This document shows, one piece after another, positions 5,670-59,409 of a DNA stretch of 64,000 nt. Origin of the DNA: Vicinamibacterales bacterium (GTDB lineage Bacteria > Acidobacteriota > Vicinamibacteria > Vicinamibacterales > 2-12-FULL-66-21); NCBI GenBank assembly GCA_035463475.1, contig DATHTE010000133.1:97297-161296 (forward strand), read 5' to 3'. Below the pieces are notes generated by a model. The model had not been told where the DNA came from. It saw nothing but the letters and a program-made list of their open reading frames with translations, and ran no database searches. Positions within the stretch are counted from its first letter, which is position 1; every line of letters begins with the position of its first letter. Position numbers and translations under genes: made by a program.

Positions 5670-5717
5670 CCTTCTGCCTTCTACCTTCTGCCTTCTACCT
5701 TCTGCCCTCTATTCTCC
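5670..5717. repeat. tandem heptamer array (CCTTCTG/CCTTCTA) x6-7; minus-strand reading CAGAAGG/TAGAAGG
   Basis: Read directly: ccttctg ccttcta ccttctg ccttcta ccttctg ccctcta ttctcc; spans the peptidase stop codon (5695-5697) and ends 2 nt before the pyrE ATG. Confidence 0.9.
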
Positions 5718-8196
5718 TCAGGTTCTTCTCGAACAGGTTGAGGATCCGCTTGTATTCGTCCGCCCAGCTGGTGGCTTCCGTGAAGCCATGATTCTCGACG
5801 GGATACACCGCCAGTTCCCAGTTCTCCTTGCGCAGTTCGATCAGCCGCTGCGCGAGCCGCACCGAGTCCTGGAAGAACACGTTGGTGTCCACCATGCCGT
5901 GGCAGATGAGCAGCGCGCCCCTCAGCCCCTCGGCGAAATAGATCGGCGAGCTGCGCTTGTACGCCTCGGCGTCTTCCTGCGGCAGGTTGAGGATGTTGGC
6001 CGTGTAGCCGTGGGCGTAGTGCGCCCAATCGGTCACCGGCCGCAGTGCGGCGCCGGCGGCGAACACGTCCGGCGTCGTGAACATCGCCATCAGCGTGATG
6101 AAGCCGCCGTAGCTGCCGCCATACAGCCCGATGCGGCGCGGGTTCACACCCTGACGCGCGGCGAGGTACTTCGCGCCGTCCACGATGTCGTCGAGGTCCT
6201 TGCCTCCCATGTGCCGGTAGATGGCCGTACGCCAGTCGCGTCCGTAGCCCGCGCTGGCGCGGTAGTCGACGTCGAGCACGACGTAGCCTCGCGAGGCGAG
6301 CAGGTTGTGGAACATGTACTCGCGGTAGTACGTGGACCAGTACTTGTGCGCGTTCTGCAGGTAGCCGGCGCCGTGCACGAACACCACGCCCGGGCGGGCG
6401 GGATCCGGCTTCGCGCCGATCATCTCCGGCCGATACAGCCGCGCGTACACCTCCGCGCCGTCGCGCGCCGTGAACGTGACCAGCTGAGGATCGATCCATT
6501 TGAACGCCCGCCACTCCGGCGCGGGTGTGGTCGTGACCTGCGTAGCAGTGGCGCCGGCCCGGTTCGGCATCAGGAACACTTCCGGCGGGCGTGTCGCAGA
6601 CGAGTGGAGGACGGCGAGCGTCGATCCGTCGGGCGACACCTCCGCATGGTTCGCGCCCGTCATGGTCGTGATCCGCGTCCGGCGTCCGCCGTCGATCGGC
6701 ACCGAGTACACGTGACGCTCCCCCGGGTGCTGCTCGGTCGAGGTGAGGTAGAAGGTCGTCCCGTCCGCCGAGAGCGAGACGTTCTCGACCTCGAACTTGC
6801 CCTCGGTGATCTGCACCGCGCGCGGCGTGGGCGCCGTTACGTCGAGCGTGAACAAGTGCATCCAGCCGTCGCGCTCGGAGAGGAAGGAGAGCCGCCGCCC
6901 GTCCTCCAGGAACTGCGCGGTGGGCGCCGTAGATCGGAAGCCTCCTCCCCCGTCGCGGATCCAGGCCGGATCGTGGGCATGCTCCAGCACACGCGCCTTG
7001 CCCGTCCCAGGGTCCACCTCGACGATCCAGCGGTCCTTGTTGTCGGTCGCGCGCGCCGACGCGACCGCGTGCCCGCCGTCGGACGAGACGTCGGGCATCG
7101 TCCAGCGCACCTCGCGAGCCGCCGCCTTGCTCTTTTCCGCGGCGCGATCGGACGGCTGCGGCTGGCTCGGACCGCGCGACGTTCCCGGCTCGGACGTGGT
7201 GTCCTGTTTCCCCGCCGCCGCAAACGATGCGTCGGCCCAGACGCTCTTTCCCGACTTGAGGTTCAGCACCGCGAGGGAGCGCTTCTCCTGAGCGTCACCC
7301 ACGTTCGTGCGACCCGGAATCATCTCGGTGTACGAAGACTCGGTGACGTAGGCCGGGATCTCTTCACGCTTCGCGCCCTGCGGGCGTTCCGAGACGAGGA
7401 TGAAGACGTGCTCGTCGTCCGGGGACAGCAACAGGTCGATCGCGCTCTGCCCGTCGCGCAACTCGAATTTCGGCAGCGCCGCCCGCTCGTCCCGCTCCTC
7501 CGTCTTCTTTCTCTGTTCCGCTTCTTCACGAACGTGCTCGATCAGCTTCTGTTCCTCGTCGCGGAGGTACTTCTGGCTGTCGGTCACGCGCGGCTCCGCC
7601 TTGCGCGGCGCGACGTCGGTCAGCTGCACGAGCAAGCCGCCGCTCTGGTTCGCCGACGCCGGTACGATGAAGAGGTTCCCGCCGCGCGTGAACGTGACGT
7701 GGGTCTCCTTCCGGGCCCAGCGCGGGTTCGACTCGGCATCCGTCGTCCGGGTCATTTGCGTTCGCGTGCCGGCGATGGTGTCCACGAGCACGACGTCGCC
7801 TCGATCGATGAACAGCACCCGTCGGCGCTCGCGGTCCCAGCGGCCGCCCGACGCGGGAGGCGCGAGCTTTCGCCCGTCGTCGGTCAGCTTCGCCAGCCCC
7901 GCACCGTCGCTCCCGACCACCCAGGTCGAATACTCGTCTTCACCTGGAAGCCGGCGCTCGAAGTACACGCGCCTCGAGTCTCCCGACCACCTCAGGCCGA
8001 TCGGCGGGTATCCCACGAGCTCCGGACCACGCATGATGCTGTCGATCGTGAGATTGAGCGCAGGCACGCGGACCGGGGCAGCAGCCTGGGGCGGCACCCG
8101 CTCCGAGGGTCCCCGTGCCGCGGGCGCCGAGGAGAGCGCGAGGGCCAGCGCGGGCGCAAGTGCATATCGGTGAAGGAGCTGGCGGGATCGAACCAT
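5695..8196 (-). CDS. S9 family serine peptidase (prolyl oligopeptidase / DPP-like, beta-propeller + alpha/beta hydrolase)
   Basis: 833 aa with signal-peptide-like N-terminus; GGSYGG nucleophile elbow, C-terminal hydrolase fold motifs (HGMVDTNV). Confidence 0.85.
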   Translation of the reverse strand: MVRSRQLLHRYALAPALALALSSAPAARGPSERVPPQAAAPVRVPALNLTIDSIMRGPELVGYPPIGLRWSGDSRRVYFERRLPGEDEYSTWVVGSDGAGLAKLTDDGRKLAPPASGGRWDRERRRVLFIDRGDVVLVDTIAGTRTQMTRTTDAESNPRWARKETHVTFTRGGNLFIVPASANQSGGLLVQLTDVAPRKAEPRVTDSQKYLRDEEQKLIEHVREEAEQRKKTEERDERAALPKFELRDGQSAIDLLLSPDDEHVFILVSERPQGAKREEIPAYVTESSYTEMIPGRTNVGDAQEKRSLAVLNLKSGKSVWADASFAAAGKQDTTSEPGTSRGPSQPQPSDRAAEKSKAAAREVRWTMPDVSSDGGHAVASARATDNKDRWIVEVDPGTGKARVLEHAHDPAWIRDGGGGFRSTAPTAQFLEDGRRLSFLSERDGWMHLFTLDVTAPTPRAVQITEGKFEVENVSLSADGTTFYLTSTEQHPGERHVYSVPIDGGRRTRITTMTGANHAEVSPDGSTLAVLHSSATRPPEVFLMPNRAGATATQVTTTPAPEWRAFKWIDPQLVTFTARDGAEVYARLYRPEMIGAKPDPARPGVVFVHGAGYLQNAHKYWSTYYREYMFHNLLASRGYVVLDVDYRASAGYGRDWRTAIYRHMGGKDLDDIVDGAKYLAARQGVNPRRIGLYGGSYGGFITLMAMFTTPDVFAAGAALRPVTDWAHYAHGYTANILNLPQEDAEAYKRSSPIYFAEGLRGALLICHGMVDTNVFFQDSVRLAQRLIELRKENWELAVYPVENHGFTEATSWADEYKRILNLFEKNLRRIEGRR

Positions 8197-8319
8197 GGCG
8201 GGAAGTATACAATCGGGAAACTCTGGCGGTCGCCAATCCGTCTTTACTTGGCGGGGCTGGATCTTTGCTTCGATCGCGGTCGAAGGGTTCCTTCCGCAAT
8301 TTCCCTGGAGAGAGGCACG

Positions 8320-13093: not shown

Positions 13094-13713
13094 GTGGTGA
13101 TCGGCGTGCCCTGCGCGCACATCGGGCACGAGTCGATCGTGTAGTTGCGCGCGGACTCGTACGCGGCGAGCGCGAAGTTCGGCACGCCGACGTCCACCAC
13201 CGACTCGCCGCGGTCGTAAATCTCGACGGTCGCCACGAGCTCGCCTCCCGCCTGCCGCACGAGTTCGGCACACCGTTCGAACGTCTTCCCCGTGTTTCGC
13301 ACGTCGTCGGCGAGGAGCACGCGTTTGCCGGAGATGTGGCGGGCGTAGAACGGCCGGAGCACGAAATGCCCGGGCTGCTCCTGCGTGAACGGCGCGAACT
13401 GCGAGCGCGGCAGCGTGAGGGGACGGCGCCCGTCGAGCAGTCCGGCGAGCGTGTGCGCGAGGAGCGCGCCGCCCGTGACCGGACCGGCCACCACCTCCGT
13501 TTGCTGAAGCACGTGGCTGGGGATGACGTCGAGCAGGTCCTGCGCGAGCTGCCAGATGGTCGACGGATGCCGGAACAGCTGGTGCGGGTTCAGGTAGACG
13601 CGGCCGTGATAGCCGTTGCCGTAATCGAAGTGCCCGTTGACCATGAGCACCTCGAAATCCTGCAGCTTTTTGAGCGCCTGCAGCCGCACCTCATCGCGCC
13701 GCGACACGCACAT
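13087..13713 (-). CDS. phosphoribosyltransferase-domain protein (second PyrE-like PRTase inside the pyr operon)
   Basis: PRPP loop VLLADDVRNTGKTF; start ATG 13713 overlaps pyrC by 23 nt, alternative GTG 13689 lies 1 nt after the pyrC stop. Confidence 0.7.
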   Translation of the reverse strand: MCVSRRDEVRLQALKKLQDFEVLMVNGHFDYGNGYHGRVYLNPHQLFRHPSTIWQLAQDLLDVIPSHVLQQTEVVAGPVTGGALLAHTLAGLLDGRRPLTLPRSQFAPFTQEQPGHFVLRPFYARHISGKRVLLADDVRNTGKTFERCAELVRQAGGELVATVEIYDRGESVVDVGVPNFALAAYESARNYTIDSCPMCAQGTPITTW

Positions 13714-15022
13714 CCTCCAGGGTGGCCGCGCCGGGCGCGTCCGGGTTGACGTACACGATCCGCCCGGCGACGAGCGTCGCCCCCACGCCGCCGCGCAGCG
13801 TCCAGCCGTCGAACGGCGTGTTCTTCGACCTGGATCGCAGCAGCGCCGCCGCAACCGTCGTCCGCATGTCGGGGACGAGCAGCGTCACGTCCGCGGCGGA
13901 ACCTTCCGCGAGCGTGCCCCCCGGGACGTTCAGGATCCTCGCCGGGTTCGAGGACAGCAGCTCGACGAGCCGCGGCAGCGTGATGCGGCCGGCATGCACC
14001 AGGCGATCGAACACGAGCGGGACCGCCGTCTCGAGGCCGACGATGCCGAACGGCGCGCGATCGAACTCGACGAGCTTCTCGTCGTAGTGATGCGGCGCGT
14101 GGTCCGTCGCGATCGCGTCGATCGACCCGTCGGCGAGCCCCTCGATGAGCGCGTCGCGGTCCGCCTCCTCGCGCAGCGGCGGGTTCATCTTGACGTTCGT
14201 GTCGTAGCCCTTCAACGCCGCGTCGGTGAGCACCAGGTGGTGCGGCGTCACCTCGCACGTCACGCGCACGCCGCGCGCCTTGCCGTCGCGGACCGCGCGG
14301 AGCGACCCGCGCACGCTCATGTGCGCGATGTGGACCCGCGCGTTCGCGAGCGCGGCGAGCGTCACGTCGCGGGCCACCATGATCTCCTCCGCGGCGGCGG
14401 GAATCCCGCGCAGGCCGAGCGCGGACGCCTCGTAGCCCTCGTGGGCGACGCCGTCCGCCTTGAGCGACGGATCTTCGCAGTGGTCGATCACCGGCATGCC
14501 GAACATGCCGGCATACTCCAGCGCGCGCCGCATGAGCAGCGCCGTCGCGACCGGCTTGCCATCGTCGGAAACAGCCACGCAGCCCGCCCGCCGCAGCTCC
14601 GCGATGTCCGCGAGCTGCTCCCCCTTCGATCCGCGCGAGACGGCGCCGACCGGGTACACGCGCGCCTGCCTCGCCTCGGCCGCCTTGCGCAGGATCAACT
14701 CGGTGATGGCGGCGTGGTCGTTGACCGGGTCCGTGTTCGGCATGCACGCGACGGCGGTGAACCCACCCGCGACCGCCGCGGCGGTGCCGGTCGCGACCGT
14801 TTCCTTGTGCTCCTGGCCCGGCTCGCGCAGGTGCACGTGCATGTCGATCAGCCCCGGCGTGACGATCCACCCCCGAGGCACCTCGAGGACGGCGGCGTCT
14901 CCGACGGGCAGGTCCTTGCCGATCCGCGCGATGCGCTCTCCTTCGATGAGCACGTCGGCTGGCCCGTTCAGGCCCTGCCGCGGATCGATGACGTGCCCGC
15001 CCTTCAGCATGCGCCTCGTCAT
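13691..15022 (-). CDS. pyrC: dihydroorotase
   Basis: 443 aa; [10 protein letters not shown] metal-binding motif, amidohydrolase fold; overlaps pyrB stop. Confidence 0.92.
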
Positions 15023-15983
15023 GATGTCGCCTGCGCCTCCGCACCCCCGCCGAGCAGGTAGAGCACCGCCATCCGGACCGCGACGCCGTTGGCCACCTGC
15101 TCGAGGATCACCGAGAAGGGCCCGTCCGCGACCGCGGAATCGATCTCCACGCCGCGGTTCATCGGGCCGGGGTGCATGATGATTGCGTCGGCTTTCGCGA
15201 GCTTCGCGCGCGCGGGGGTGAGGCCGAACTCTTCGAAGTACTCGCGCGTGGTCGGGAAGAAATGGCCGTGCATCCGCTCCTGCTGGATGCGCAGCATCAT
15301 CACGACGTCCGCGTCATCGACGGCTTCTTCGATCCGCGTCGTCGCGGCAACGCCGAACCGTTCGACATCGGGCGGCAGCAGCGTCGCGGGGGCACAGACC
15401 TGCACGTGCGCCCCGACCTTGTTCAGGAGGATGGCGTTCGACCTGAACACGCGGCTGTGGAACAGGTCGCCGACGATTGCGACCTTCAGTCCCTCGAGCC
15501 GTCCCTTGCGCTCGCGGATCGTGAACGCGTCGAGCAGCGCCTGCGTGGGATGTTCGTGCAGGCCGTCCCCCGCGTTCACGACGTGCGAGCGGCAGATGCG
15601 CGCGAGCAGGTGGCAGGCGCCCGACGAGGAGTGCCGCATGACGATGATGTCCGGCGCCATCGCCTCCAGGTTGCGGACCGTGTCCACGAGCGTCTCCCCC
15701 TTGACGACGCTGGACACGGCGGTGGCGATGCTCAGCGTGTCGGCGCTCAGGCGCTTCTCCGCGACTTCGAACGACGTGCGCGTCCGCGTGCTGGGCTCGA
15801 AAAAGAGGTTGACGACGGTCCGGCCGCGCAGCGCCGGCACCTTCTTGATCGGGCGCGAGCCGATCTCCTTCATCGCCTCGGCCGTGTCGAGCACGAGGAG
15901 GATCTCGTCCTTCGAGAGGTCTTCGATCCCCAGCAGGTGCCGGCCGCGGAGCGACGTCCGCCCGACGATCGCCGTCTCGGGGC

Positions 15984-15987
<4 letters not shown>
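15019..15987 (-). CDS. pyrB: aspartate carbamoyltransferase catalytic subunit
   Basis: 322 aa; FFEPSTRTR and HPTQ, HPGP motifs. Confidence 0.93.
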
Positions 15988-16526
<539 letters not shown>

Positions 16527-16557: not shown

Positions 16558-16592
16558 CAGACCTCTTCGCGGCCTCGCTGGACCGCGGTTAA
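16558..16592 (-). promoter_or_regulatory. candidate PyrR-binding RNA hairpin in the pyrR leader
   Basis: Minus-strand RNA reads UUAACCGCGGUCCAGCGAGGCCGCGAAGAGGUCUG: stem CGCGG/CCGCG enclosing UCCAGCGAGG, followed by GAAGAGG; resembles the remembered PyrR binding-loop core (approximately UCCAGAGAGGCU...GAAGG); 32 nt upstream of the pyrR ATG. Confidence 0.6.
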
Positions 16593-16620
16593 AGAGCGAG
16601 GGGGAGTGTATCACACACGT

Positions 16621-16842
16621 CGATCGGGTAACCGGTCATCGCGGAATCGGGGAATCGCACGATCGGGGAATCGGGTAATCGGCAATCGGGTAAATTGGAC
16701 CGGGGAATCGGGGAATCGGGTCATCGTGGGCGCCATAATGCGAGGCGACGGCACGATTACCGATCCCATGGCCCGATTGCCCGCTTACCCGATTACCGAT
16801 CGTGCCATCACCCGATTTACCCGATTATCATTTACCGATCGG
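16621..16842. repeat. about 220-bp dyad-symmetric array of 7-8 nt units (AATCGGG-type on the left arm, CCCGATT-type on the right arm)
   Basis: Read directly: left arm gaatcgg ggaatcg ... ggtaatc ggcaatc gggtaa...; right arm cgattac..cccgattgc..acccgattac..cccgatttacccgatt; ends cgatcgggtaa / ttaccgatcgg are inverted; fills the whole spacer between the AlkP-family gene stop (16843) and the pyrR leader. Confidence 0.9.
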
Positions 16843-18630
16843 CTAGCGTCCGGCCATCAGCGTCTCATACGACCTGATGAACACAATCGGCCTGCTGTCC
16901 GAGAACTCCTTCACGAACAGGTCCGTGCGCGCGAAGCCGTCCATGTCGCGGCCGACGGGGAGCCCGAGGTAATAGAGAATCGTCGGCGCGACGTCCACCA
17001 CCGCGCCGCGCTGGAGCTTGCCGGAACGCACGCGCGCGCCGTACGCGAGCAGAAACCCATCGGGCGCGCGCTCGTGCGTGCCGCTCATCCGCACGTCCCC
17101 GAGCAGCTGCGCCAGCAGGCGCTTCGGCACCGTCATCGGCTCCATGCCGAAGCCCGACACCACGAGCAGGAGATCGTCGGGACCGAGCGTCGCGATCTGG
17201 GCGCCAATCTCGGCGTCGAGAAACGCGTAGTACCGATCGAGCACCGCGCCGTGGCGCCGAACGTCCGCCTCCGAGACGTTGCCGAACGCCCGCGGCATCG
17301 CGTAGCGGAGATACGTGTGCCCGACCGCGTCGATGCCGGCATAGCGGACGGCCAGCAGCCCCGGGCGAATCGACGCCGACAGCTCGCGCGCGAGTCGGCC
17401 GTAGATGCGGTCCCACCGCGCCGGCTGCTCCTGCAGCGGTTCGAGGCCGCTGGCAGAGGCATTGACCGGCACCGGCGCGATCTCCGGGGCCTGCGGCGCG
17501 TCGAAGAACGCGTCACGCGCGGCGGGCAGGACCTCGGCTGGATATGCGACCGTCTCGTCAACCAGCCGCAGCAGCGAACGCGACACCAGGTGCAGGCGAT
17601 CGGAGATCAGGAACCCGCGGATCGGTTGCGCCGGGTACGTCACCGGCCAGCGGACGACGCCGCTCGAGATCCCGCGCGTGGCCAGCAGGCTCCAGAGCGG
17701 ACGCGCGCGCCATGAGGAGGACGAGTGCGGCGCGGCCTGCACGAGGCCGAAGCGGACGAGCGCGTGCGCCAGGCAGTAGTCCGGCAGCAGCTGCACGGCG
17801 TGGGTGCGCGAACGGACGTAATAGAGCGCGCTGCTCGGCACGCCGTTGCGCGGCGGGTACTTGCCGGTGGCGACGGCGGCCCACACCGGCTCCGGCTGCG
17901 TCGGGCGCAGCGTCGCGAGGTCCATCGCCGCGCCACGGTCGAGGATGCGCCCGAAGTTCGGAAACCGGCCCTCCACCGCCCGCGGCCACAAGTAGTCGAG
18001 CGAGGCCCCCTCGAGCAGCACCAGCACGACGCGACCGGCACTGGCCTCCGTGTCCCCCCCGCTCGTGGCGGCCGTGGCGGGCGCCGTGAACGGCTGCGCC
18101 GCAGGTGGCCGCAGCTCACCGAACCCTCGCGCCGCCAGCGGCAACGCCAGCGACGCGCCGAGCGCGAGGCTGAGGATCGCGGCCGCCGCGCGGCTGCCCC
18201 GCCAGCCGATCGAGTACGACGCGATCGCGATCGACAGCAGCACCGCCGCGACGCCGGTCGCGCCGATGGCTCCCGCGGCCATCCCCCGCGCCGCGTCCTC
18301 GCCGATCGCCACCGAGAAGGCGCGCAGGTTCAGCCACATCAGCAGCGCCGCGCCGCCGCAGAGCAACGTGCCGAACCACGCCTGCAGCCGCACGCTGACC
18401 CATGCCGGTCCGCGCACCGGCACGCCGATCACCTCGAGCAGCAGCATCGCCCCGTAGCAGCCCACCGCGAGGTGCACACCATAGAGCGCCGAGAGCGCAG
18501 CGTACCACTCGATCACGACCCGATCGAACACTGGAAGGTGCGGATTCAACTGCAGCAGCAGAATCGTGAGGTACGCGGCGCCGACGAGCCCGGCGATCAA
18601 CGCGTTGGAGAGCAGTCGAAGGTACCGCAC
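16843..18630 (-). CDS. membrane-anchored alkaline-phosphatase-superfamily protein (type I phosphodiesterase/nucleotide pyrophosphatase-like)
   Basis: 595 aa; about 5 N-terminal TM helices, then VVLVLLEGASLDYLWP...TLRPTQPEPVWAAVATGKYPPRNG and DAVGHTY metal-site-like motifs; start codon is GTG. Confidence 0.7.
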   Translation of the reverse strand: MRYLRLLSNALIAGLVGAAYLTILLLQLNPHLPVFDRVVIEWYAALSALYGVHLAVGCYGAMLLLEVIGVPVRGPAWVSVRLQAWFGTLLCGGAALLMWLNLRAFSVAIGEDAARGMAAGAIGATGVAAVLLSIAIASYSIGWRGSRAAAAILSLALGASLALPLAARGFGELRPPAAQPFTAPATAATSGGDTEASAGRVVLVLLEGASLDYLWPRAVEGRFPNFGRILDRGAAMDLATLRPTQPEPVWAAVATGKYPPRNGVPSSALYYVRSRTHAVQLLPDYCLAHALVRFGLVQAAPHSSSSWRARPLWSLLATRGISSGVVRWPVTYPAQPIRGFLISDRLHLVSRSLLRLVDETVAYPAEVLPAARDAFFDAPQAPEIAPVPVNASASGLEPLQEQPARWDRIYGRLARELSASIRPGLLAVRYAGIDAVGHTYLRYAMPRAFGNVSEADVRRHGAVLDRYYAFLDAEIGAQIATLGPDDLLLVVSGFGMEPMTVPKRLLAQLLGDVRMSGTHERAPDGFLLAYGARVRSGKLQRGAVVDVAPTILYYLGLPVGRDMDGFARTDLFVKEFSDSRPIVFIRSYETLMAGR

Positions 18631-21126: not shown

Positions 21127-21702
21127 TTACTTGGCCGTGAAGATGAAGTGGCCGCGGCGGTTCTGGGACCAGCAGCTCTCGTTCTCTTCTTGGCAGAATG
21201 GCTGCTCTTCCCCCTTGCTGACGACCTGGACCCGATCGTTGGGCACGCCAAGGCTGACGAGATAGTCGCGCGTCGCATCGGCGCGGCGCTCGCCCAGCGC
21301 GAGGTTGTACTCGTTCGTGCCGCGCGAGTCGCAGTGCCCCTCGATCAGGATGCGCGTGCTCGCCCACCGCTTCAGCCACGCGGAGTTCTTGTCGAGGCTC
21401 GCGCGCGCCTCCTCGCCGAGCGCCGCGCTGTCGTACTCGAAGAACACGTCCGCGAGCGGCTTCTCCGCGTTGAGTTCGTCGAGCGTCTTCTTCGCGAAGA
21501 TCTCCTCCTCGCTGAGTGGCTTTGGCGCCGGCGGTGGTGGCGGTGGCGGTGGTGGCGGAGGCGGCGGTGGCGGAGCGGGCTCCGCGGGCGGTGGCGGTGG
21601 CGGCGGTGCCGTCTCCGGCTGCTTCTTGCCGCAGCCGATCGCAGCGATAAGCGCGCAGCAAAGCGTGAGGGTGGATAGAATTCGCAGCGTTCTTTCCATC
21701 AT
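21127..21702 (-). CDS. pal: peptidoglycan-associated lipoprotein (OmpA-family, Pal) with long poly-proline linker
   Basis: Start at ATG ATG 21702 (MMERTLRILSTLTLCCALIAAIGCG lipobox); about 30-residue Pro-rich tract; OmpA-like domain with GHCDSRGTNEYNLALGERRA. Confidence 0.88.
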   Translation of the reverse strand: MMERTLRILSTLTLCCALIAAIGCGKKQPETAPPPPPPPAEPAPPPPPPPPPPPPPPPAPKPLSEEEIFAKKTLDELNAEKPLADVFFEYDSAALGEEARASLDKNSAWLKRWASTRILIEGHCDSRGTNEYNLALGERRADATRDYLVSLGVPNDRVQVVSKGEEQPFCQEENESCWSQNRRGHFIFTAK

Positions 21703-21739
21703 GGCGCTGAGCTTAACGACTCGATAGGGGCGTGTCAAT

Positions 21740-42254: not shown

Positions 42255-42819
42255 TCACGTCGCCGACCTCCGCCTGATCGACGACGTTCATCCCCGAGAG
42301 GACCTGGCCGAAGATCACGTACTTGCCGTTCAGGCTCAGAATGTTGCGCCGCAGGATGTAGAACTGGCTGTCGGCCTGCCTCGGATCGCCCGCGTGCGCC
42401 ATGCCAACCGCTCCACGAATGTTGGGGCGTCGCTTCGAGAACTCCGCGACACCCACCGGCTTGCCGCTGCCCGAGGCCGGGCCGCTCCCCCAGAGCTCCC
42501 GTTTCGTGTAGTCGCGCGTCTGCGGGTCCCCCATCTGAATGACGAAGTTCTCCTCGGAGCGATGGATCCGGAGGCCGTTGTAGAACCGGCGCCTCACGAG
42601 CGTCAGGATGTGCTCGACCGTCTTCGGCGCATCTTCCGGATACGTTTCGAACTCGATCGTCCCGCGGCTCGTTTCGATCACGATGACGGGCCCGGCACCC
42701 GGCGACGGCTTGGCCGGAGCCTCGGGCTTCGGCTGGGGCTTCGGCGCGGGTTTCTCCTGTGCCGCGGACGGAATCGCGAAGAACAACAGCGCGATGAGCA
42801 ACGTGATCCTGCGATGCAT
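42220..42819 (-). CDS. secreted peptidyl-prolyl cis-trans isomerase (cyclophilin type)
   Basis: Start at ATG 42819 (MHRRITLLIALLFFAIPSAAQ signal peptide); cyclophilin core FYNGLRIHR...FVIQMGDP. Confidence 0.85.
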   Translation of the reverse strand: MHRRITLLIALLFFAIPSAAQEKPAPKPQPKPEAPAKPSPGAGPVIVIETSRGTIEFETYPEDAPKTVEHILTLVRRRFYNGLRIHRSEENFVIQMGDPQTRDYTKRELWGSGPASGSGKPVGVAEFSKRRPNIRGAVGMAHAGDPRQADSQFYILRRNILSLNGKYVIFGQVLSGMNVVDQAEVGDVIKRMYLKGGAR

Positions 42820-42848: not shown

Positions 42849-43502
42849 TTATAGCGGCTTCGCGGGCTTTCCGGTTTTGGTCACCCCGACCTTCGGACAC
42901 ACATCCGCGAGGACGCACTCCGGACACAGCGGGTAGATCGGACGGCAGACGTTTTGTCCCCACGTGACCAGGTAGAGATTGATCAGCGGCCACCAGCGCC
43001 GCGACGCGACCTTGTACAGCGCGTGCTCCGTCTGCTCCGGCGTACGGGTCCGGACCCAGCCCATGCGATTGGAGATGCGATGCACGTGCGTATCGACGCA
43101 GATGTTCGCGCGACTGTTGTGCGCCAGGATGAGGACGAGGTTCGCGGTTTTGCGGCCGACGCCCGGCAGGGTGAGCAGTTCCTGCATCGTGGAGGGCACG
43201 ACACCGTCGAAGCGCGAGAGGATCTGCTTGCAGGCGGCTTTCACGTGCCGCGCCTTGTTCCGATAGAAAGACACGGGGTAAATCAGCTTGCGAATCGTGG
43301 GGACGGGCAGCCTGGCCATCGCGCGGGGCGTGCGCGCCGCGCTGAACAGCCGCGTCGATGCCGCGGCGGTCACCTCGTCCCGGGTCTGCGCGGACAGCAT
43401 CGTCGCGATGAGGACCTCGAATGGATCCTCCTGGCTGTCTTCCGCGATCTTCTCCACCGCCGGCTCGTCGAGCCCGTCAATCGCCTTCGCCAGGCGTCGC
43501 AT
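42849..43502 (-). CDS. nth: endonuclease III
   Basis: HhH-GPD LPGVGRKTANLVL, catalytic VDTHVHR, 4Fe-4S CRPIYPLCPECVLADVC; start taken at ATG 43502 (MRRLAKAI); the track start 43583 would translate a heptamer repeat array. Confidence 0.85.
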   Translation of the reverse strand: MRRLAKAIDGLDEPAVEKIAEDSQEDPFEVLIATMLSAQTRDEVTAAASTRLFSAARTPRAMARLPVPTIRKLIYPVSFYRNKARHVKAACKQILSRFDGVVPSTMQELLTLPGVGRKTANLVLILAHNSRANICVDTHVHRISNRMGWVRTRTPEQTEHALYKVASRRWWPLINLYLVTWGQNVCRPIYPLCPECVLADVCPKVGVTKTGKPAKPL

Positions 43503-43525
43503 GACGGTGCTGACCGGCGCAGCAT

Positions 43526-43574
43526 CGAATGCCGAATACCGAGTGCCGAATGCCGAACGTCGAAGAGCGAGTCG
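43526..43574. repeat. tandem heptamer array CGAATGC-type x7
   Basis: cgaatgc cgaatac cgagtgc cgaatgc cgaacgt cgaagag cgagtcg read directly. Confidence 0.85.
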
Positions 43575-43579
43575 CATGA

Positions 43580-44536
43580 TCATGTCACCGCCGTGAGCGC
43601 CGGCCGCCCGTTCAGCACCTCGATGACGTTGCGCGCCGCCAGCTCCGCCATCGCGGTGCGCGTTTCCCGGGTCGCGCTGCCGAGATGGGCCGCGAGCACC
43701 ACGTTGTTGAGCGCGAGCAGGTCGGGGTGGACCTGCGGCTCGCGCTCGTAGACGTCGAGCGCGGCACCCGCCAGCAGCCCCTCCCGGAGCGCCCAGGCAA
43801 GCGCCTCTTCGTCGACCACGGGGCCGCGCGACGTGTTCACGAGATACGCGCTCCGCTTCATGCGGGCGAGCGCCCGGCGGTCGAACAGGTGCGACGTCTC
43901 AGCCGTGAGCGGCGTGTGGATCGACACGACGTCGGAGCCGACGAGCAGCTCGTCGAAGCTCACCGAACGTGCCTTCGCCGGAGGATCGTGCGCCGGGCCC
44001 ATCCGATCGTAGTACGCGACGGACATCCCGAACGCGGGCGCGCGGGCCGCGACGGCGCGGCCGATGCGGCCGAGCCCCACGATTCCGAGCTGCTTGCCCT
44101 CGAGCTCCATCCCGAGCATGTAATCGAGGCCCCAGCCGCGCCATTGGCCGGACCGCACGACGCGGTCCGATTCCGCAATGCGCCTCGTGGCAGCCAGGAT
44201 GAGCCCCCACGTGAACTCCGCGACGGCACCGGTGAGCACGTCGGGTGTGTTGGTGACGACCACGCCGCGCTCGCGCGCGGCGGCGAGATCGACGTTGTCG
44301 TAGCCAACCGCGACGTTGGCCACGATCCGGAGGTCGCGGCCCGCCTCGAGCAGCTCGCGGTCGATCCGGTCGGTGAGCAGCGACACCAGCGCACGCTTGC
44401 CCGGCACACGCGCGACCAGCTCTTCGTGCGGCAGCGAGGCCGCGCGGGTGTTCATCTCGACGTCGCAGTGGCGCTCGAGCAGCTCGATGACCGAGGAGGG
44501 CAGCCGGCGCGTGACGAGGATGGGAGGGCGATCCAT
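43580..44536 (-). CDS. D-isomer-specific 2-hydroxyacid dehydrogenase (glyoxylate/hydroxypyruvate reductase-like)
   Basis: 318 aa; GIVGLGRIGRAVA NAD motif, catalytic R..E..H pattern (NTSRG, AALDVYE, HLGSAT). Confidence 0.85.
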   Translation of the reverse strand: MDRPPILVTRRLPSSVIELLERHCDVEMNTRAASLPHEELVARVPGKRALVSLLTDRIDRELLEAGRDLRIVANVAVGYDNVDLAAARERGVVVTNTPDVLTGAVAEFTWGLILAATRRIAESDRVVRSGQWRGWGLDYMLGMELEGKQLGIVGLGRIGRAVAARAPAFGMSVAYYDRMGPAHDPPAKARSVSFDELLVGSDVVSIHTPLTAETSHLFDRRALARMKRSAYLVNTSRGPVVDEEALAWALREGLLAGAALDVYEREPQVHPDLLALNNVVLAAHLGSATRETRTAMAELAARNVIEVLNGRPALTAVT

Positions 44537-44562: not shown

Positions 44563-44826
44563 TCAGTGCCCGTGCGACTGGCAGTACCCGCAGTGGTTGC
44601 AGCGGACCGCGGGCTCGATGAAGCAGGGGCCGTCGCTCTCCTCGCCGCTGAGCACGTTGTGGCGTGCGTGGCTCGCGTGCCACGCGAGCGGCAGCAGACG
44701 CGGCGCCGAGTACTGGTGCGCCCGCTCCGCGGGGCCCACGGACTGGGCGCGGGCCGACCCGGGCGCGGCGCCCAGGTGCCGCGAGACGACCTCACGGACC
44801 AGCGCGCGAACCGCTTCTTCGTTCAT
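44563..44826 (-). CDS. small Cys/His-rich protein with N-terminal encapsulation-peptide-like helix (BMC-associated, function unknown)
   Basis: 87 aa; MNEEAVRALVREVVSRHLG amphipathic helix, Pro/Ala/Gly linker, C-terminal CFIEPAVRCNHCGYCQSHGH (C-x7-C-x2-C-x2-C plus His); start overlaps the BMC-P stop as ATGA. Confidence 0.6.
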   Translation of the reverse strand: MNEEAVRALVREVVSRHLGAAPGSARAQSVGPAERAHQYSAPRLLPLAWHASHARHNVLSGEESDGPCFIEPAVRCNHCGYCQSHGH

Positions 44827-45101
44827 GCGTCGATTCCCACGTCCACCGCGTCGACGATCCCCACGACCGCGGCGTCGACCGGCGCGGCTTTGCGGCCAAG
44901 GGCGTCCCCCGCCGCCTTCCCCTCGAGCACGACGAGCACCTTCTCGCCCACGCCCGCGCCGACGGAATCGATCGCGAGCACGGTGTTCCCGCGCGGGGCG
45001 CCCGCGAGCGTGAGGGGCTGCACGAGCAGCAGCTTCGCGCCGTGGAGCTTGCGGTGCTTCTGCGTCGAGACCACGGTGCCGACCACGCGCGCGATCTGCA
45101 T
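44823..45101 (-). CDS. BMC-P pentameric vertex protein (EutN/CcmL family), paralog 3
   Basis: Internal start MQIARVVGTVVSTQKHRKLHGAKLLLVQP (codon 89 of the 180-aa track ORF); full EutN-like length of 92 aa. Confidence 0.85.
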   Translation of the reverse strand: MQIARVVGTVVSTQKHRKLHGAKLLLVQPLTLAGAPRGNTVLAIDSVGAGVGEKVLVVLEGKAAGDALGRKAAPVDAAVVGIVDAVDVGIDA

Positions 45102-45105
45102 GCGG

Positions 45106-45381
45106 TCACGCCTGCGGCTGATAGTCCCATTCGTCGACGATGCCGATGATCGCGGCGTCGGTCGGCGGCTCGACGGGATAGAAGGGGAACGCGGCCTCGC
45201 GGCCGCGCACGAAAAACACGCGCTCGCCGACGCCGGCGCCGACCGAGTCGGTGGCGACCAGGGTCTTGCCCACGTCCTGGCCGTCGGCGGCGATGGGTTG
45301 CAGGACCAGGAGCTTGATCGAGACGAGGTTCTCGTCCTTGCGGGTCGCCACCACGTCGCCGACAACGCGCGCGAGCTGCAT
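45106..45381 (-). CDS. BMC-P pentameric vertex protein (EutN/CcmL family), paralog 2
   Basis: 91 aa; [29 protein letters not shown]...ATDSVGAGVGERV. Confidence 0.88.
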   Translation of the reverse strand: MQLARVVGDVVATRKDENLVSIKLLVLQPIAADGQDVGKTLVATDSVGAGVGERVFFVRGREAAFPFYPVEPPTDAAIIGIVDEWDYQPQA

Positions 45382-45650
45382 CAGTCCACCACCTCGATGG
45401 TGTCGATGATGCCGACGATGGCGGCGTCCACCGGGCAGTCCTTCATGCCGGAGGCCATGCGCGCGGAGCTGCCGCTCACGATGAGCACCGTCTCGCCGAC
45501 GCCGGCATCGACGGTGTCTACCGCGACGAGGTAGTTCGCGTCGAGCTTGCCTTTCGGGTCCACGGGGCGGGCCAGCAGGAGCTTGCTGCTCACGAGGCGC
45601 TCGTCCTTCCTCGTGGCGACGACGGTGCCGACGATCTTCGCCAGGATCAC
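45381..45650 (-). CDS. BMC-P pentameric vertex protein (EutN/CcmL family), paralog 1
   Basis: 89 aa; [29 protein letters not shown]...[13 protein letters not shown]. Confidence 0.88.
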
Positions 45651-45973
45651 GCCTTCGCCGTGTTCGCCTTGCCGATCGGCAGCGCGTCCTCGAGGTTGGC
45701 GTGCGGGCGCGGAATGACGTGCACCGACACGAGCTCGCCGACGCGGCGGGCGGCTGCCGCGCCCGCGTCGGTCGCGGCTTTCACGGCGGCGACGTCGCCG
45801 CGGACGATCGCGGTCACGTAGCCGGCGCCGATCTTCTCCCAGCCGACCAGCGTCACCTTGGCGGCCTTGACCATCGCATCGGCCGCTTCGATCATCGCGA
45901 CCAGGCCTTTGGTCTCGATCATCCCCAGCGCTTCACCCATCAGAGCCTCCAGATCGTGCGCACGCGCCCTCAC
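45647..45973 (-). CDS. BMC-H hexameric shell protein (PF00936-type, PduA/EutM/CcmK-like)
   Basis: [58 protein letters not shown]; ATG 45973 overlaps the aldolase stop (ATGA); ATG 45940 ([10 protein letters not shown]) is the more family-typical start. Confidence 0.9.
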
Positions 45974-46830
45974 TTCAGGGCGCGGATCGCATCCTCAATC
46001 AGTGCTGCCAGTTCGCCGTATGTTAGCCGAATTTCCTGATCCGCTCCTAGCGCCGCGGCGGCGGCCAGGCGCGGCCCGCCGGGCGGCACGTCGGCGGCGC
46101 GCACGACCTGGCAGGCGGCGTTCCCCTCGGCCGTGCCGGCGCGCGCGGGCACCTGGTCCGGCGGGCAGATTGGTGCCGGCGACGCGATGCCGTACGTGCC
46201 GCGGAGCCGTTGCAGGCGATCGACCTCCTCGCGCGAGAGCACGCGCTCGCGCCCGAGCAGGCGCGCCACGAGGCTGATTCTCGCGAAGTGCTCGATCGTC
46301 TCCATCTTGTAGTACGCCGCGTACAGCTCGTGCCCCACGGTCAGCGCGCCGTGGTTGGCCAGGAGCAGGCCGTCGTGTGCCTTGATGTATGCCTCGACGG
46401 CGTGCGCCAGCTCCGGCGTCGACGGCGTGCCGTACTCCGCGATGGGAATGCTGCCGAGCGTGGTCACGACCTCGGCGAGGACCGCGCGATCGAGCGGGAT
46501 GCCCGCGACGGCAAAGCCGGTGGCGATCGGCGGGTGCGCGTGCACCACGGCGCTCGCGTCCGGCCGGTTCCGGTAGACCGCCAGGTGCATCAGCAGCTCG
46601 GACGAGGGATCGCGATCGCCGGCGAGTTTCTTGCCCGACATGTCGGTGACGACCATCATGTCGGGTGTCATGAAGCCCTTGGAAACACTCTTGGGGGTCG
46701 CCAGCAGCCGCTGGCCGTCGAGGCGCACGCTGATGTTGCCGTCGTTCGAGGCGCAGTAGCCGCGCGCGTACAACCGGCGGCCGACCTCAACGATCGCCGA
46801 CCGGAGCGCGTCTTCCGGCGTCGGGGCCAT
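45970..46830 (-). CDS. class II aldolase/adducin-family protein with C-terminal encapsulation-peptide-like extension
   Basis: 286 aa; FucA/AraD-like core with Zn ligands (VVHAHP, LANHG); about 70-aa extension ending in the amphipathic helix [20 protein letters not shown] after a Pro/Ala/Gly linker. Confidence 0.85.
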
Positions 46831-50641: not shown

Positions 50642-50682
50642 TCAGGGTTCAGGCTTCAGCGTTCAGGATTCAGGTTCAGGGC
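50642..50682. repeat. tandem heptamer array TCAGGGT-type x6
   Basis: tcagggt tcaggct tcagcgt tcaggat tcaggt tcagggc read directly; contains the ybbR-like stop codon (50663-50665). Confidence 0.85.
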
Positions 50683-52158: not shown

Positions 52159-52395
52159 CTATATCCCTCTGAGCTGATCATCGAGCGCCGCGAGCGCCTG
52201 CTCGAGCATCCGCCGGTGCGCGGGGTTGCTGACGCGCTCGAGGTCCGCGAGCAGACGCGCGCGCGACAGTTCGAGCGTGCGGCGCCGATCCAGCCGCTCG
52301 CGCTCCTCCGCCGAGGTCGCAGGACCTGCCGTCGTCTTTCGGGCGGCCTCTTCCTGCTGGGCCTCTACCTGTTTGCTTTCGAAGCCGCGGGCCAT
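52159..52395 (-). CDS. small charged coiled-coil protein, unknown function
   Basis: Start taken at ATG 52395 (MARGFESKQVEAQQEEA); the longer track start 52428 would run into the repeat array. Confidence 0.45.
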   Translation of the reverse strand: MARGFESKQVEAQQEEAARKTTAGPATSAEERERLDRRRTLELSRARLLADLERVSNPAHRRMLEQALAALDDQLRGI

Positions 52396-52414
52396 ACCAG
52401 GCGATTCTAGTCCA

Positions 52415-52496
52415 TCGGTAATTGGCAATCGGGGTCATCGGGTAATCGCACGATCGGGTAATCGGGGAATCGGCAATCGGGTAGTGGGATTACCAG
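52415..52496. repeat. AATCGGG-type heptamer array, second copy of the element at 16621-16842 (left-arm homolog)
   Basis: ggtcatcgggtaatcgcacgatcgggtaatcggggaatcggcaatcgggta here versus ggtcatcgcggaatcggggaatcgcacgatcggggaatcgggtaatcggcaatcgggta at 16634-16692. Confidence 0.85.
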
Positions 52497-53369: not shown

Positions 53370-53374
53370 GAACG

Positions 53375-53532
53375 GGTCCGTCCGACAAGGTCCGACAAGG
53401 TTCGATCGGTTCGATCGGTTCGATAGGTTCGACAGGTTCGACAGGTTCCGGGTTCGAGTTCGCCTGAACCCTTCGAACCTATCGAACCTTTCGGACCTTT
53501 CGAACCTTTCGAACTTTTCGAACCGTTCGAAA
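53375..53532. repeat. dyad-symmetric array of 9-10 nt tandem repeats (TTCGAYMGG x about 8, then NTTCGAACC x about 7)
   Basis: Read directly: tccgacaagg x2, ttcgatcgg x2, ttcgatagg, ttcgacagg x2 ... then cttcgaacc tatcgaacc tttcggacc tttcgaacc tttcgaac ttttcgaacc gttcgaaac; fills the ftsH-folP spacer. Confidence 0.9.
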
Positions 53533-55430
<1,898 letters not shown>

Positions 55431-55434
<4 letters not shown>

Positions 55435-56825
55435 GCAAGTTCCCCCAAACGCCTGACCTTCAAGAGTAACACGGCCCCTTCCGGGCTCGTGACCCGGAAG
55501 TCCTCTGCAACGGTGTGGCCGACAATCCAGACAATCCGGTCGCGGCCATCCACGACCAGCGGGACGCGATCCCGCTCATTTCGAGGCACTTTGCGGTCAA
55601 CAAAGTAATCCTGCAGTTTTTTCCGGCCCGCCAGCCCGGCGGGCCGGAAACGGTCACCGCGCCTCCGGTTCCGCACGGCCATATTGCCGGACACGGCCGC
55701 GGCGGACACGGTAACCTGATCCGGTGTTTCGGCTCGATCAGCCGGGCCGATTACGATTTCAGCCGTGATGGCGACGCCACTCTCCCGGACGCGGGCCTCT
55801 CCAGGAATAGACAACGGATACGTGAAAATGTTCGATTCCGGGGCATTCTGCGCCCCCCGGCCCCTTCCCGGCCCCAGCGCGAGCGTCTTCCCGTCCACCT
55901 CCGCGTGAATGCCCGGCAGGTCCAGCGCCCCGGACTCGAGCGCCAGGACCGCGTCCACGTGCTTCAGGCCGATGAAGCGTCCGGCCGCGACACCCGCCAT
56001 GGCCCGCAGGAGAACGCGCCGGGCGATGGCCGGATGCAGCGCCTTCAAGCGCGCCACGTCCAGCCGGAGCGAGCCATCCTCACTAGGTAAGACGACTGCC
56101 GGAGTCGCTTCGATTGCCTGCGCCTCGAGAAAATTCGCGTCAGCGTCGGCAATGTCGGCGGCGCGCGCGATGGCCTCCCCGGCTCCGGGCACGATGCGCT
56201 CCAGCGCGGGCAACAGCTCGTGGCGAATCCGGTTGCGCGGGATCGATAGGTCGGCGTTCGTCGCATCGGTCCGAAACGCAATCGCACGGCCTTCGAGCCA
56301 GGCGTGCAGCTCTGCCCGCCCGACGTCGAGCAGCGGGCGGACGATGGCGTGGCGCCTTCGCCGGATGCCGCTCAGGCCCCGAGGGCCCGCCCCGCGAAGC
56401 AGACGCAGCAAGAACGTCTCCGCCTGGTCGTCCCGCGTGTGCCCCACGGCGATAACGTCGGCGTTCAGTCCGGCCCGGGCGCGCTCCAGGAACTCGTAAC
56501 GCAGCCTGCGTCCCGCGTTCTCGACCGAGGTCTTCCACTCGCGCGCGGCGGCCGCCACGTCCGCACGTTCAGACACGAACTCGACGGCAAGCGAGCCGCC
56601 CAGCTCGCGGCAGAACGCTTCGTCGGCGTCCGCGTCCGCGCCGCGCAGGCCGTGGTGGAGATGGGCGAGACCCACGAGCTTCAGGCCCGCGGCCCCCTGG
56701 AGCTCCCGAAGAAGGTGCGCCATTGCGACCGAGTCCGGGCCGCCCGAGACGGCGGCGATCACACGAGATCCCTTCGGAATCAGGCTGCGGACGGTGCGGA
56801 GGACGCGCTCCGGTACAGGGTGCAT
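55431..56825 (-). CDS. tilS: tRNA(Ile)-lysidine synthase
   Basis: 464 aa; SGGPDS PP-loop, overlaps the ftsH start; tilS-ftsH-folP order is conserved. Confidence 0.9.
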
Positions 56826-56878
56826 GTCCGCCTCAGGCGGACACCAGGTAGGGCCAGCCTGCAGGCGGACCAGAAAAG

Positions 56879-56955
56879 TGGTGCCGGTGCAGGGACTTGA
56901 ACCCCGGACACTGCGGATATGAGCCGCATGCTCTAACCATCTGAGCTACACCGGC
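56879..56955 (-). tRNA. tRNA with CAU anticodon (elongator Met or lysidine-dependent Ile2; not an initiator)
   Basis: Hand-folded cloverleaf: acceptor GCCGGTG/CACCGGC, D arm GCTC..GAGC, anticodon arm TGCGG-CTCATAT-CCGCA, T arm CGGGG-TTCAAGT-CCCTG, discriminator A, encoded CCA; G1-C72 pair argues against an initiator. Confidence 0.85.
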
Positions 56956-56981
56956 AGGAACCCCTAAGTATAACAAACAAA

Positions 56982-57015
56982 TCAGGGTTCAGGGTTCGGG
57001 CTCGGGTGCGAGGAT
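56982..57015. repeat. short heptamer array TCAGGGT TCAGGGT TCGGGC TCGGGTG CGAGGAT
   Basis: Read directly between the OMP stop (57017) and the tRNA promoter region; same unit as the array at 50642-50682. Confidence 0.7.
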
Positions 57016-57016
57016 T

Positions 57017-59335: not shown

Positions 59336-59375
59336 ACGCCCAGGCGGAGGCCGGCCGGCAGCTGCGTTGGACCCC

Positions 59376-59409
59376 GGCGGTCTCGGCTGTCTCGGCGGTC
59401 TCAGCGGTG
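59376..59409. repeat. tandem nonamer array GGCGGTCTC GGCTGTCTC GGCGGTCTC AGCGGTG
   Basis: Read directly in the spacer between 59451 (upstream stop) and 59335 (OMP start). Confidence 0.8.

Follow-up and report, generated by a model that had tools for sequence, protein, structure and literature searches.

Tandem heptanucleotide repeats of the STRR type were reportedly described in heterocystous cyanobacteria by Mazel et al. in 1990, and the consensus units of this family include CCCCAGT, TTGGTCA and CAACAGT. The 7-bp STRR repeats can form hairpins and are located inside operons, including between hupS and hupL, where a contribution to transcript stability or translational coupling has been suggested (PMC2670836). 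In Xanthomonas, approximately 185 arrays of the unit GGGAATC are present per genome in direct as well as inverted arrangement, and arrays that occupy the same intergenic position in related species differ in both length and sequence; the same study covers the GGGGA(C/T)T repeats of Nostoc (Rehm et al. 2015, PMC4692102). Marine Beggiatoaceae carry intergenic TAACTGA heptamers, often a few nucleotides from start codons and with stop codons within the unit (MacGregor 2015, PMC4679880), and Chloroflexus, like the Beggiatoaceae, has a heptamer family of its own (PMC6749651, PMC4679880). Among long simple sequence repeats with units of 5–11 nt, heptanucleotides dominate in many bacteria (Mrazek 2007, as cited in PMC4679880 and PMC4692102; PMC4060949). 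Such arrays have been on record in cyanobacteria for decades, and genome surveys have reported them for nearly two decades, with neither the preference for 7 nt nor a function explained. Here we analyse arrays of this kind in a stretch of 64,000 nucleotides from a Vicinamibacterales bacterium of the phylum Acidobacteriota (contig DATHTE010000133.1 of assembly GCA_035463475.1, positions 97,297 to 161,296), hereafter referred to as the window.

The window arrays are an acidobacterial counterpart of the STRR repeats and, by sequence and lineage, are not members of the STRR family. A preliminary description of this DNA had named STRR as the closest analogue, and the comparison bears this out, since tandem 7-nt units, a location in non-coding DNA including operon spacers, a few unit families occurring at several sites and inverted arrangements that can form hairpins are common to both (PMC2670836). 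In contrast, the units found here (CCTTCTR, AATCGGG, CGAATGC, TCAGGGT and GGTTCGAYA) do not correspond to the STRR consensus, belong to another phylum with a G+C content of 69%, differ between related genomes and include some 8- and 9-nt derivatives; moreover, unit-step polymorphism between strains, involving both arms of a hairpin together, is documented here. With long simple sequence repeats the arrays share a length greater than chance, an intergenic bias, the dominance of heptanucleotides and slippage as the presumed origin, but the local density is high, one-third of the arrays lie in inverted pairs, and Acidobacteria are not singled out in the available portions of those surveys. Similar to Xanthomonas, two loci in the window carry AATCGGG, a rotation of GGGAATC, and arrays are found near the ends of open reading frames (ORFs) in direct and inverted form and, in related species, between the same genes but with differing length and sequence; unlike Xanthomonas, where one unit dominates, several unrelated units coexist, most of which cannot form a G-quadruplex. 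The Beggiatoaceae repeats likewise differ in having a single genome-wide unit in sets of 2–6 copies, as opposed to the many units, longer arrays and inverted pairs seen here. No relevant account of such repeats in Acidobacteria or Vicinamibacter was found in the searchable literature, so that they appear, as had been suspected, to be undescribed for this lineage. The general phenomenon is already known, and what is new is the lineage for this functionally unexplained kind of repeat, together with a series of intermediates between terminator and periodic hairpin, the joint change of hairpin arms, a dispersed element of ~80 nt and one array that probably lies in the tail of nth. Acidobacteria, a dominant and poorly studied soil phylum in which this architecture is abundant, represent an independent third lineage, which points to a general cause and not to a peculiarity of cyanobacteria.

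On balance, we favour an explanation in which the arrays are non-coding, heptanucleotide-based and grow by slippage, with the inverted pairs serving as 3' hairpins and the direct arrays being mostly neutral. Tandem Repeats Finder (TRF) run on the 64-kb window recovers all eight of the loci listed in the preliminary description, which had nevertheless counted at least nine, and yields 9–10 rows of period 7–9. When the intergenic segments or the entire window are shuffled with dinucleotide composition preserved, approximately zero arrays of these periods result, and by the same comparison the arrays are longer than expected by chance, as is characteristic of long simple sequence repeats. The arrays are as follows (coordinates are those of the window):

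5669–5711, minus strand: direct array of CCTTCTG/CCTTCTA (TRF period 7/14, 96% matches at period 14).
16619–16727 (TRF 16623–16726), no strand assigned: AATCGGG(N) left arm of a large inverted pair (TRF, alignment and blastn).
16763–16846 (TRF 16772–16827), no strand assigned: CCCGATT(N) right arm, the inverted copy (TRF, alignment and blastn).
43526–43574 (TRF 43526–43557, 4.6 copies), minus strand: degenerate direct array of CGAATGC, GCATTCG in sense (TRF).
50642–50682 (TRF 50642–50681, 5.9 copies), minus strand: direct array of TCAGGGT, ACCCTGA in sense (TRF).
52407–52490 (TRF 52413–52483), plus strand: single AATCGGG(N) array without inverted partner (TRF, alignment and blastn).
53375–53532 (TRF arms 53380–53448 and 53466–53531), no strand assigned: 9-mer inverted pair in the ftsH-folP spacer (TRF).
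56982–57015 (TRF 56982–56997, 2.3 copies, then degenerate units), minus strand: short decayed array of TCAGGGT, ACCCTGA in sense (TRF).
59375–59408, minus strand: GC-rich array of the 9-mer CGGCGGTCT, 3.8 copies, AGACCGCCG in sense (TRF).

The array at 5669 reads (CAGAAGG/TAGAAGG)n in the mRNA sense, with a higher-order period of 14 nt, whereas most of the window arrays are imperfect, with 66–85% matches by TRF, and the array at 59375 is the weakest member of the set. The inverted pair at 53375–53532 consists of GGTTCGAYA units, a central palindrome (GGGTTC at 53450–53455 and GAACCC at 53466–53471) and TTTCGAACC units. At least five unrelated units are present within 64 kb of a single genome. 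The proposal that each array has its own unit does not hold, however, as AATCGGG is found at two loci (in three copies) and TCAGGNT at two loci in the window and one outside it; the proposed division into periods of 7 or 9 nt is too neat, given that units of both 7 and 8 nt occur within the AATCGGG arrays. A search with Rfam at gathering thresholds returned only tRNA, and no array is covered by a known RNA family.

The distribution of the arrays was assessed in a census of the window and 11 syntenic Vicinamibacterales-like loci, comprising 303 kb, of which ~22 kb are non-coding; the generic gene caller used for these loci makes some errors. The best genome matches of the FtsH encoded in the window are 76–84% identical and belong to Vicinamibacterales of the Acidobacteriota. 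Arrays of period 7 are found 34 times outside and twice inside genes, those of period 8 eight times outside and never inside, and those of period 9 seven times outside and four times inside, with other periods being rare. Neither of the two period-7 arrays called inside genes is convincing, one being a gene-caller artefact and the other a marginal GC-rich array of 3.6 copies. Equal frequency in coding regions, which the preliminary description had regarded as fatal to its interpretation, is not what the census shows. In 68 loci from other acidobacterial classes, 38 period-7 arrays lie outside genes and eight inside, of which six look like effects of gene calling or ORF edges and two are marginal, indicating that the pattern is phylum-wide. 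A length of 7 nt is not divisible by 3, and many units (for example TAGAAGG and ACCCTGA) carry stop codons; for these reasons, and as the distribution shows, arrays are purged from gene interiors and accumulate in spacers and at the extreme ends of genes, and they make up most of the length of many spacers.

Extrapolated from this one syntenic region, the density is ~160 arrays of period 7–9 per Mb. The pattern is not universal, since intergenic heptamer arrays are absent from two loci (L007 and L009), and the array load thus varies strongly within the order. We note that L007 and L009, which are Vicinamibacterales-like and share the gene order of the window, have the highest G+C content of the loci (71–74%). 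A preference for co-directional spacers was considered and rejected, as 35 of the 46 arrays with known context reside in co-directional spacers, and such spacers account for 135 of 169 overall; no type of non-coding context is free of arrays, and both orientations are represented. The observation that every array in the window lies between co-directional minus-strand genes accordingly reflects local gene order only, and is not strictly correct, given that one array borders tRNA-Met and one is probably within nth.

The gene order g60428 ... tilS-ftsH-folP-cdaA-ybbR-glmM-pdxJ ... 2HADH-nth is kept in all 12 genomes, yet arrays sit in different spacers in different genomes, and the units at one shared spacer usually differ. 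Spacers bearing arrays are long and the corresponding array-free spacers mostly short, indicating that the arrays themselves largely create the long spacers and are subject to high turnover between species. In Vicinamibacterales, positions are not conserved more than the background density predicts, with arrays in the ftsH-folP spacer of five of the 12 genomes compared with ~4 expected from density. The expectation that position would be conserved in relatives is therefore not borne out in the strict sense, but closer relatives do retain the type of array at the ftsH-folP site, namely L010 and L011 (84% FtsH identity) and L031 and L055 (87%).

The arrays vary in length in steps of whole units. 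A second assembly of the same organism (ENA metagenome assembly ERZ27272645, contig k141_777275, loci L081, L162, L163 and L164) covers positions 1–54057 of the window and, before its divergent last 84 nt, differs from it by 28 single-nucleotide polymorphisms (SNPs; ~0.05%) and only two indels. One of these adds 28 nt, exactly four heptamers, to the array at 5669, which has nine units in the second assembly and five in the window, with stop-to-start spacers of 55 nt and 27 nt, respectively. This sole varying array is also the purest (96% matches), and the other five of the six array loci covered are unchanged, the degenerate arrays, including both inverted pairs, being identical. The other indel is a 12-nt in-frame change in a 12-nt coding tandem repeat, GGGCTTCGGCTG, at 42723, where a cyclophilin-type peptidyl-prolyl isomerase (Pro_isomerase) is encoded. 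At the end of k141_777275, the final 84 nt (window 53974–54057, inside ftsH) contain 17 mismatches and seem to be a strain-variable or chimeric end. The arrays at 56982 and 59375 fall outside the coverage of the second assembly, and look-ups with the exact sequences of FtsH and of the protein encoded at 60428–61492 returned no match. Likewise, a metagenome scan with FolP revealed only relatives of at most 66% identity and no further contig of the same species, but it yielded a trio of soil contigs (L131, L143 and L144) that are 98–98.8% identical to each other.

Within this trio, most of the indels in comparisons with L131 are single 7-nt units in ATGGCTR/CAGCCAT inverted pairs, and approximately two-thirds of the gapped bases between L143 and L144 fall within arrays of this type. 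In this small sample, a length change in one hairpin arm is accompanied by a change in the other (+7/+7, +14/+7 and +7/+6), which is compatible with selection for pairing as well as with templated correction from arm to arm. A further 7-nt indel distinguishes the GGAATTT arrays of L149 and L159. Together with the four-unit difference at 5669, the 7-nt differences of the trio agree with the variation in spacer length by slipped-strand mispairing that the preliminary description had listed as a possible role, and we suggest that arrays would grow and shrink by whole units through replication slippage, with some heptamer units lengthened to 8 or 9 nt. By a rough estimate, the arrays change ~100–1000 times faster than a single site, which is nevertheless far slower than the repeats of phase-variation contingency loci. 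Contingency repeats are perfect and hypermutable and are found in promoters or 5' ORF ends of surface or virulence genes; repeats of this kind were ruled out by the imperfection of most of the arrays, their housekeeping neighbours and the lack of change at five of six loci at 0.05% SNP divergence. The purest arrays represent ready variable-number tandem repeat (VNTR) markers for strain-resolved metagenomics of Vicinamibacterales.

Arrays within one genome are related to each other more often than arrays of different genomes. Taking units as shared when they are at a distance of 1 or less in any rotation or on either strand, 20 of 109 pairs of arrays at different sites of the same genome (18%) share a unit, compared with 4.6% between genomes, a value that none of 2000 permutations reached. 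The three AATCGGG arrays of the window are copies of one higher-order element of ~80 nt with an irregular AATCGCACGATCGGG core, located at two loci 36 kb apart (16619–16692, plus strand; 16763–16846, minus strand; 52407–52490, plus strand). The copy at 52407–52490 is 84% identical to 16619–16692 over 75 nt (E 5e-16), and 16763–16846 is 80% identical to the 52.4-kb copy over 85 nt (E 2e-14). TCAGGNT arrays are present at 50.6 and 56.98 kb, with a third located 7 kb beyond the left end of the window, between genes for an aminotransferase and ALAD. The shared units and the ~80-nt element indicate that some arrays were copied, in direct or inverted form, rather than having arisen independently, and occasional copying of this sort, seen for two families, gives rise to the few unit families per genome. 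Most arrays are built from units found a single time in the sampled sequence. Within the trio, ATGGCTR hairpin elements with similar central sequences lie within a few kilobases (1737–1830 and 7536–7600 in L143, and ~6335–6383 in L131), each ending in CATGAC beside a likely start codon, and resemble a dispersed family of periodic palindromes.

The direct and single arrays have the predicted folding energies of shuffled sequence, with z-scores ranging from +0.7 to −1.9 (5669, −0.5; 43526, +0.7; 50642, −0.4; 52407, −1.1; 56982, −1.9; 59375, −0.1). The two inverted pairs of the window, by contrast, have a strong potential to form hairpins: 53370–53532 folds with a dG of −86.9 kcal/mol (z −7.2; none of 200 shuffles folds as well) and 16600–16845 with a dG of −118.8 kcal/mol (z −6.4). 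Thus, the earlier suggestion of a role in RNA structure is compatible with the inverted pairs but does not extend to the direct arrays. The data set contains 16 inverted pairs, to which approximately one-third of the arrays belong, and these would constitute imperfect hairpins of 60–110 bp directly 3' of genes. The direct arrays may be mostly neutral spacers of variable length, perhaps incidentally tuning the coupling of neighbouring genes.

Comparison of the region downstream of ftsH provides a view of how the periodic hairpins might have arisen. In five relatives (L001, L025, L041, L044 and L047), a stem followed by a T-run is present directly after the ftsH stop codon, with canonical terminators in relatives such as L001, L044 and L047, and L003 has a plain hairpin. 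In L051 and L054, a direct (CAGTTCT)n array is placed between the ftsH stop codon and the terminator. In the window and in L006, L008, L010, L011, L024, L031 and L055, a short central palindrome separates an array of one unit from an array of the reverse-complemented unit; the units in L031, L055 and L024 are AAAGGCA and TGCCTTT, which iterate the A-tract, stem base and U-tract of a terminator. The 110 nt following ftsH fold with z < −2.5 in 44% of the loci, compared with 20% of control co-directional spacers, indicating that the conserved feature after ftsH is a 3' hairpin, of which the periodic arms are an elaboration. The series from plain terminator through a hairpin with few units to a long periodic hairpin suggests how such hairpins grow, namely that the arms would represent a slippage-driven elaboration of a small ancestral hairpin.

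Because of their position and this comparative series, we infer that the inverted pairs most likely act as ordinary 3' hairpins, with a function in termination or attenuation or, as for REP elements, in blocking 3' exonucleases. In enterobacteria, REP elements are ~35 nt in length and not internally periodic, form one conserved family per genome and are linked to RAYT transposases. The resemblance to REP/BIME sequences concerns the inverted pairs only, which are likewise dispersed hairpins 3' of genes inside operons, for which protection of 3' ends or attenuation is plausible. The size, aperiodicity, single family and RAYT link of REP elements are not seen for the window arrays. REP/BIME sequences are characterized by many copies of a conserved short imperfect palindrome; the ~80-nt AATCGGG element is present in three copies, a count that covers 64 kb.

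The restriction of unit families to single genomes could also arise if the arrays served as tandem sites for trans-acting factors that recognize DNA or RNA in registers of 7 nt, such as a cold-shock or S1-type single-strand-binding domain with one heptamer bound per domain; the units would then co-evolve with these factors. Unit families are common to unlinked sites of one genome far more than between genomes, the unit type is retained at the same site in L010/L011 and L031/L055, and the direct arrays, being unstructured, would be accessible as single strands; furthermore, such a role was proposed for the TAACTGA repeats, citing the binding of heptamers by CspB (PMC4679880). However, at least five unrelated units coexist in 64 kb and the units at one orthologous spacer differ between species, so that arrays of protein-binding sites, as also put forward in the preliminary description, are hard to reconcile with the data. 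In addition, the arrays occur in all non-coding contexts and both orientations, are mostly degenerate and are flanked by housekeeping genes without a common theme. We therefore consider factor binding a doubtful explanation, and it is unlikely that an array comprises sites for one sequence-specific protein.

About equally doubtful is the possibility that the arrays are small non-autonomous mobile or palindromic elements, similar to REP/BIME or MITE sequences and mobilized by a transposase such as RAYT, with the heptad periodicity being secondary. This would accommodate the three ~80-nt AATCGGG copies with their irregular core at two distant loci and in both orientations, as well as three ATGGCTR hairpins with a common unit and similar centre within 8.5 kb of L143/L144, with corresponding copies in L131. 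Yet no target-site duplications or defined terminal inverted repeats were seen, and no transposase, including those related to RAYT or IS200/IS605, is present in the Pfam annotations of the genes of the second assembly over positions 1–54 kb of the window. Nor would mobility account for the units that occur only once, or for differences between strains that are unit-sized rather than insertions or excisions of a whole element.

Returning to growth by slippage with inverted pairs as 3' hairpins, several observations weigh against this explanation. The inverted pairs of the window have a stem without a T-run or U-tract and are thus not canonical intrinsic terminators, and a scan for the terminator consensus over 42–61 kb found no terminator at any array. 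Moreover, folds of sense and antisense RNA are equally stable, with four inverted pairs favouring the sense and nine the antisense strand. The two assemblies of this organism, on which part of the length comparison rests, may derive from samples that are not independent. Finally, local slippage alone does not predict the genome-specific unit families, the persistence of units at the same spacer at 84–87% FtsH identity (L010/L011 and L031/L055) or the overwhelming preference for 7 over 5, 6 or 8 nt. The equal stability of sense and antisense folds means that there is no G-U signature of selection on the transcript, and selection at the RNA level on the transcribed strand is rejected on present data because of this lack of bias in folding energy; the symmetry of the hairpins looks like a feature of the DNA.

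The three features that slippage leaves unpredicted provide room for selection or for a dedicated mechanism. There is a small chance, which we rate below that of factor binding or mobile elements, that the arrays are not passive products of slippage and that a dedicated mechanism measuring 7 nt makes, homogenizes and disperses them in Acidobacteria and, by extension, the STRR and Xanthomonas GGGAATC repeats. Candidates would include a specialized polymerase, a primase, a reverse-transcriptase activity or hairpin-directed template switching. If such a mechanism existed, each genome would have unit families of its own, and periodic hairpins would replace canonical terminators in high-G+C lineages.

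As has been proposed for GGGAATC in Xanthomonas and GGGGAYT in Nostoc, the arrays might act on transcription or replication as non-B DNA in the form of a G-quadruplex or i-motif. AATCGGG is a cyclic permutation of the Xanthomonas unit, oligonucleotides of this kind are reported to form G-quadruplexes in vitro (PMC4692102), and the plus strand, which serves as the template for the local genes, has four or more G3 tracts in the AATCGGG and TCAGGGT arrays. On the other hand, the other five units of the window are not of the GGGAATC or GGGGAYT type with four G-tracts, and a G3 or C3 tract is present in only 24 of the 126 period-7 units of the data set, estimated to be no more than composition predicts, and an enrichment of G-tracts was rejected accordingly. 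As the CCTTCTR, CGAATGC and 9-mer arrays are incapable of forming a G-quadruplex, and no regulatory role was found even in Xanthomonas (PMC4692102), this explanation is very improbable. Assembly artefact or chance low-complexity sequence is effectively refuted, since, although short-read assemblers can miscount tandem repeats, the second assembly contains the arrays and matches base for base except at one array, where the difference is a whole number of units, no array exceeds the length of a read or the k = 141 implied by the prefix of the contig name, dozens of independent genomes and contigs have such arrays, and shuffles give none.

The genes around the arrays were mapped by codon log-odds and cross-checked with Pfam and with independent gene calls on the second assembly. 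They are housekeeping genes (for example ftsH, folP, glmM and pyrR) with no common theme. The array at 5669 is located between the genes for an S9 peptidase and a phosphoribosyltransferase, with the TAG stop codon of the former (5695–5697) inside the array, which ends 1 nt before the ATG of the latter (5667). In the sense direction this array provides GAAGG upstream of the ATG; a general role as a Shine-Dalgarno sequence was dropped, as the other start-adjacent arrays share no such motif. The tilS-ftsH-folP-(orf78)-cdaA-ybbR-glmM cluster contains the arrays at 50.6, 52.4 and 53.4 kb. The first lies between ybbR/cdaR and glmM and includes the TGA stop codon of ybbR (50663–50665), whereas the ybbR-glmM spacer of relatives is 0–66 nt long and has no array. 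The element at 52407–52490 is just 3' of the folP stop codon (52497), and the inverted pair at 53375–53532 fills the entire ftsH-folP spacer, ending 1 nt from a stop codon (53533). The earlier remark that several arrays run up to or into stop and start codons is thus accurate, with stop codons inside the arrays at 5669 and 50642 and distances of a single nucleotide at 5667 and 53533. The array at 59375 is upstream of a DUF5916/CBM9 gene, at least 40 nt beyond its farthest possible start. The arrays lead gene callers astray, in that ORFs are extended across them or genes are cut short at stop codons within them.

The array of CGAATGC at 43.5 kb is placed by the gene map between the gene for a 2-hydroxyacid dehydrogenase and nth (endonuclease III). 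From the reading frame and its conservation, it probably resides inside the N-terminal tail of an nth ORF starting at 43583, rather than in a 77-nt spacer. The ENA gene call for this ORF (42849–43583, minus strand) has 244 amino acids and an ATGA overlap with the upstream stop codon, the frame is open through the array, and in relatives a conserved TVERV-M stretch is translated ahead of the internal Met and nth has −4 overlaps as well. The tail that holds the array is poorly conserved. If nth starts at 43583, the array encodes part of a basic N-terminal tail, RRSAFGTRYSAFD, and would be a heptamer array tolerated within coding DNA. The TRF hits at 21.5 and 35.4 kb, with periods that are multiples of three, fall inside genes on the calls of the second assembly and are ordinary coding repeats; the former, at 21529–21617, is a GC-rich repeat of period 6/9/15/33 (GGCGGTGGT...) encoding a low-complexity stretch of a 203-aa ORF (21127–21738, minus strand) called on that assembly.

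The inverted pair at 16.6 kb is located between a phosphodiesterase-family gene and pyrR, and the last bases of its right arm (16763–16846) include the TAG stop codon of the former (16843–16845). A hairpin with a PyrR-binding loop, GGUCCAGCGAGGCC, is present at 16563–16596 on the minus strand, with a partial match to Rfam RF00515 of 25.5 bits that is below the gathering score, just upstream of the pyrR-pyrB-pyrC cluster (15984–16526, 15019–15987 and 13691–15022). The AATCGGG inverted pair would therefore sit between the stop codon of the upstream gene and a likely pyr attenuator leader.

The array at 56982 lies 27 nt upstream of tRNA-Met (56879–56955) and next to a −10-like TATACT box (56967–56972, minus strand). 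We note that a 7–8-nt array is found 25–45 nt upstream of tRNA-Met in four genomes (56982–57015 in the window, 8337–8419 in L006, 8313–8346 in L008 and 8374–8402 in L013), with a different unit in each, and that each of these arrays abuts a −10-like box (TATACT, TATAAT or TAAACT) at approximately the −35/UP-element position.

Two further observations concern the surrounding genes. In the folP-cdaA spacer, a 78-aa ORF (52159–52395, minus strand) encodes a coiled-coil-like protein, MARGFESKQVEAQQ..., with no Pfam match and a weak codon score; it is missing from this spacer in all 11 relatives and may be either a genuine small gene or an artefact of gene calling. At 44563–46830 on the minus strand there is a bacterial microcompartment (BMC) cluster with one BMC shell gene, three EutN/CcmL genes and a class II aldolase, the synteny of which is conserved across the Vicinamibacterales loci.

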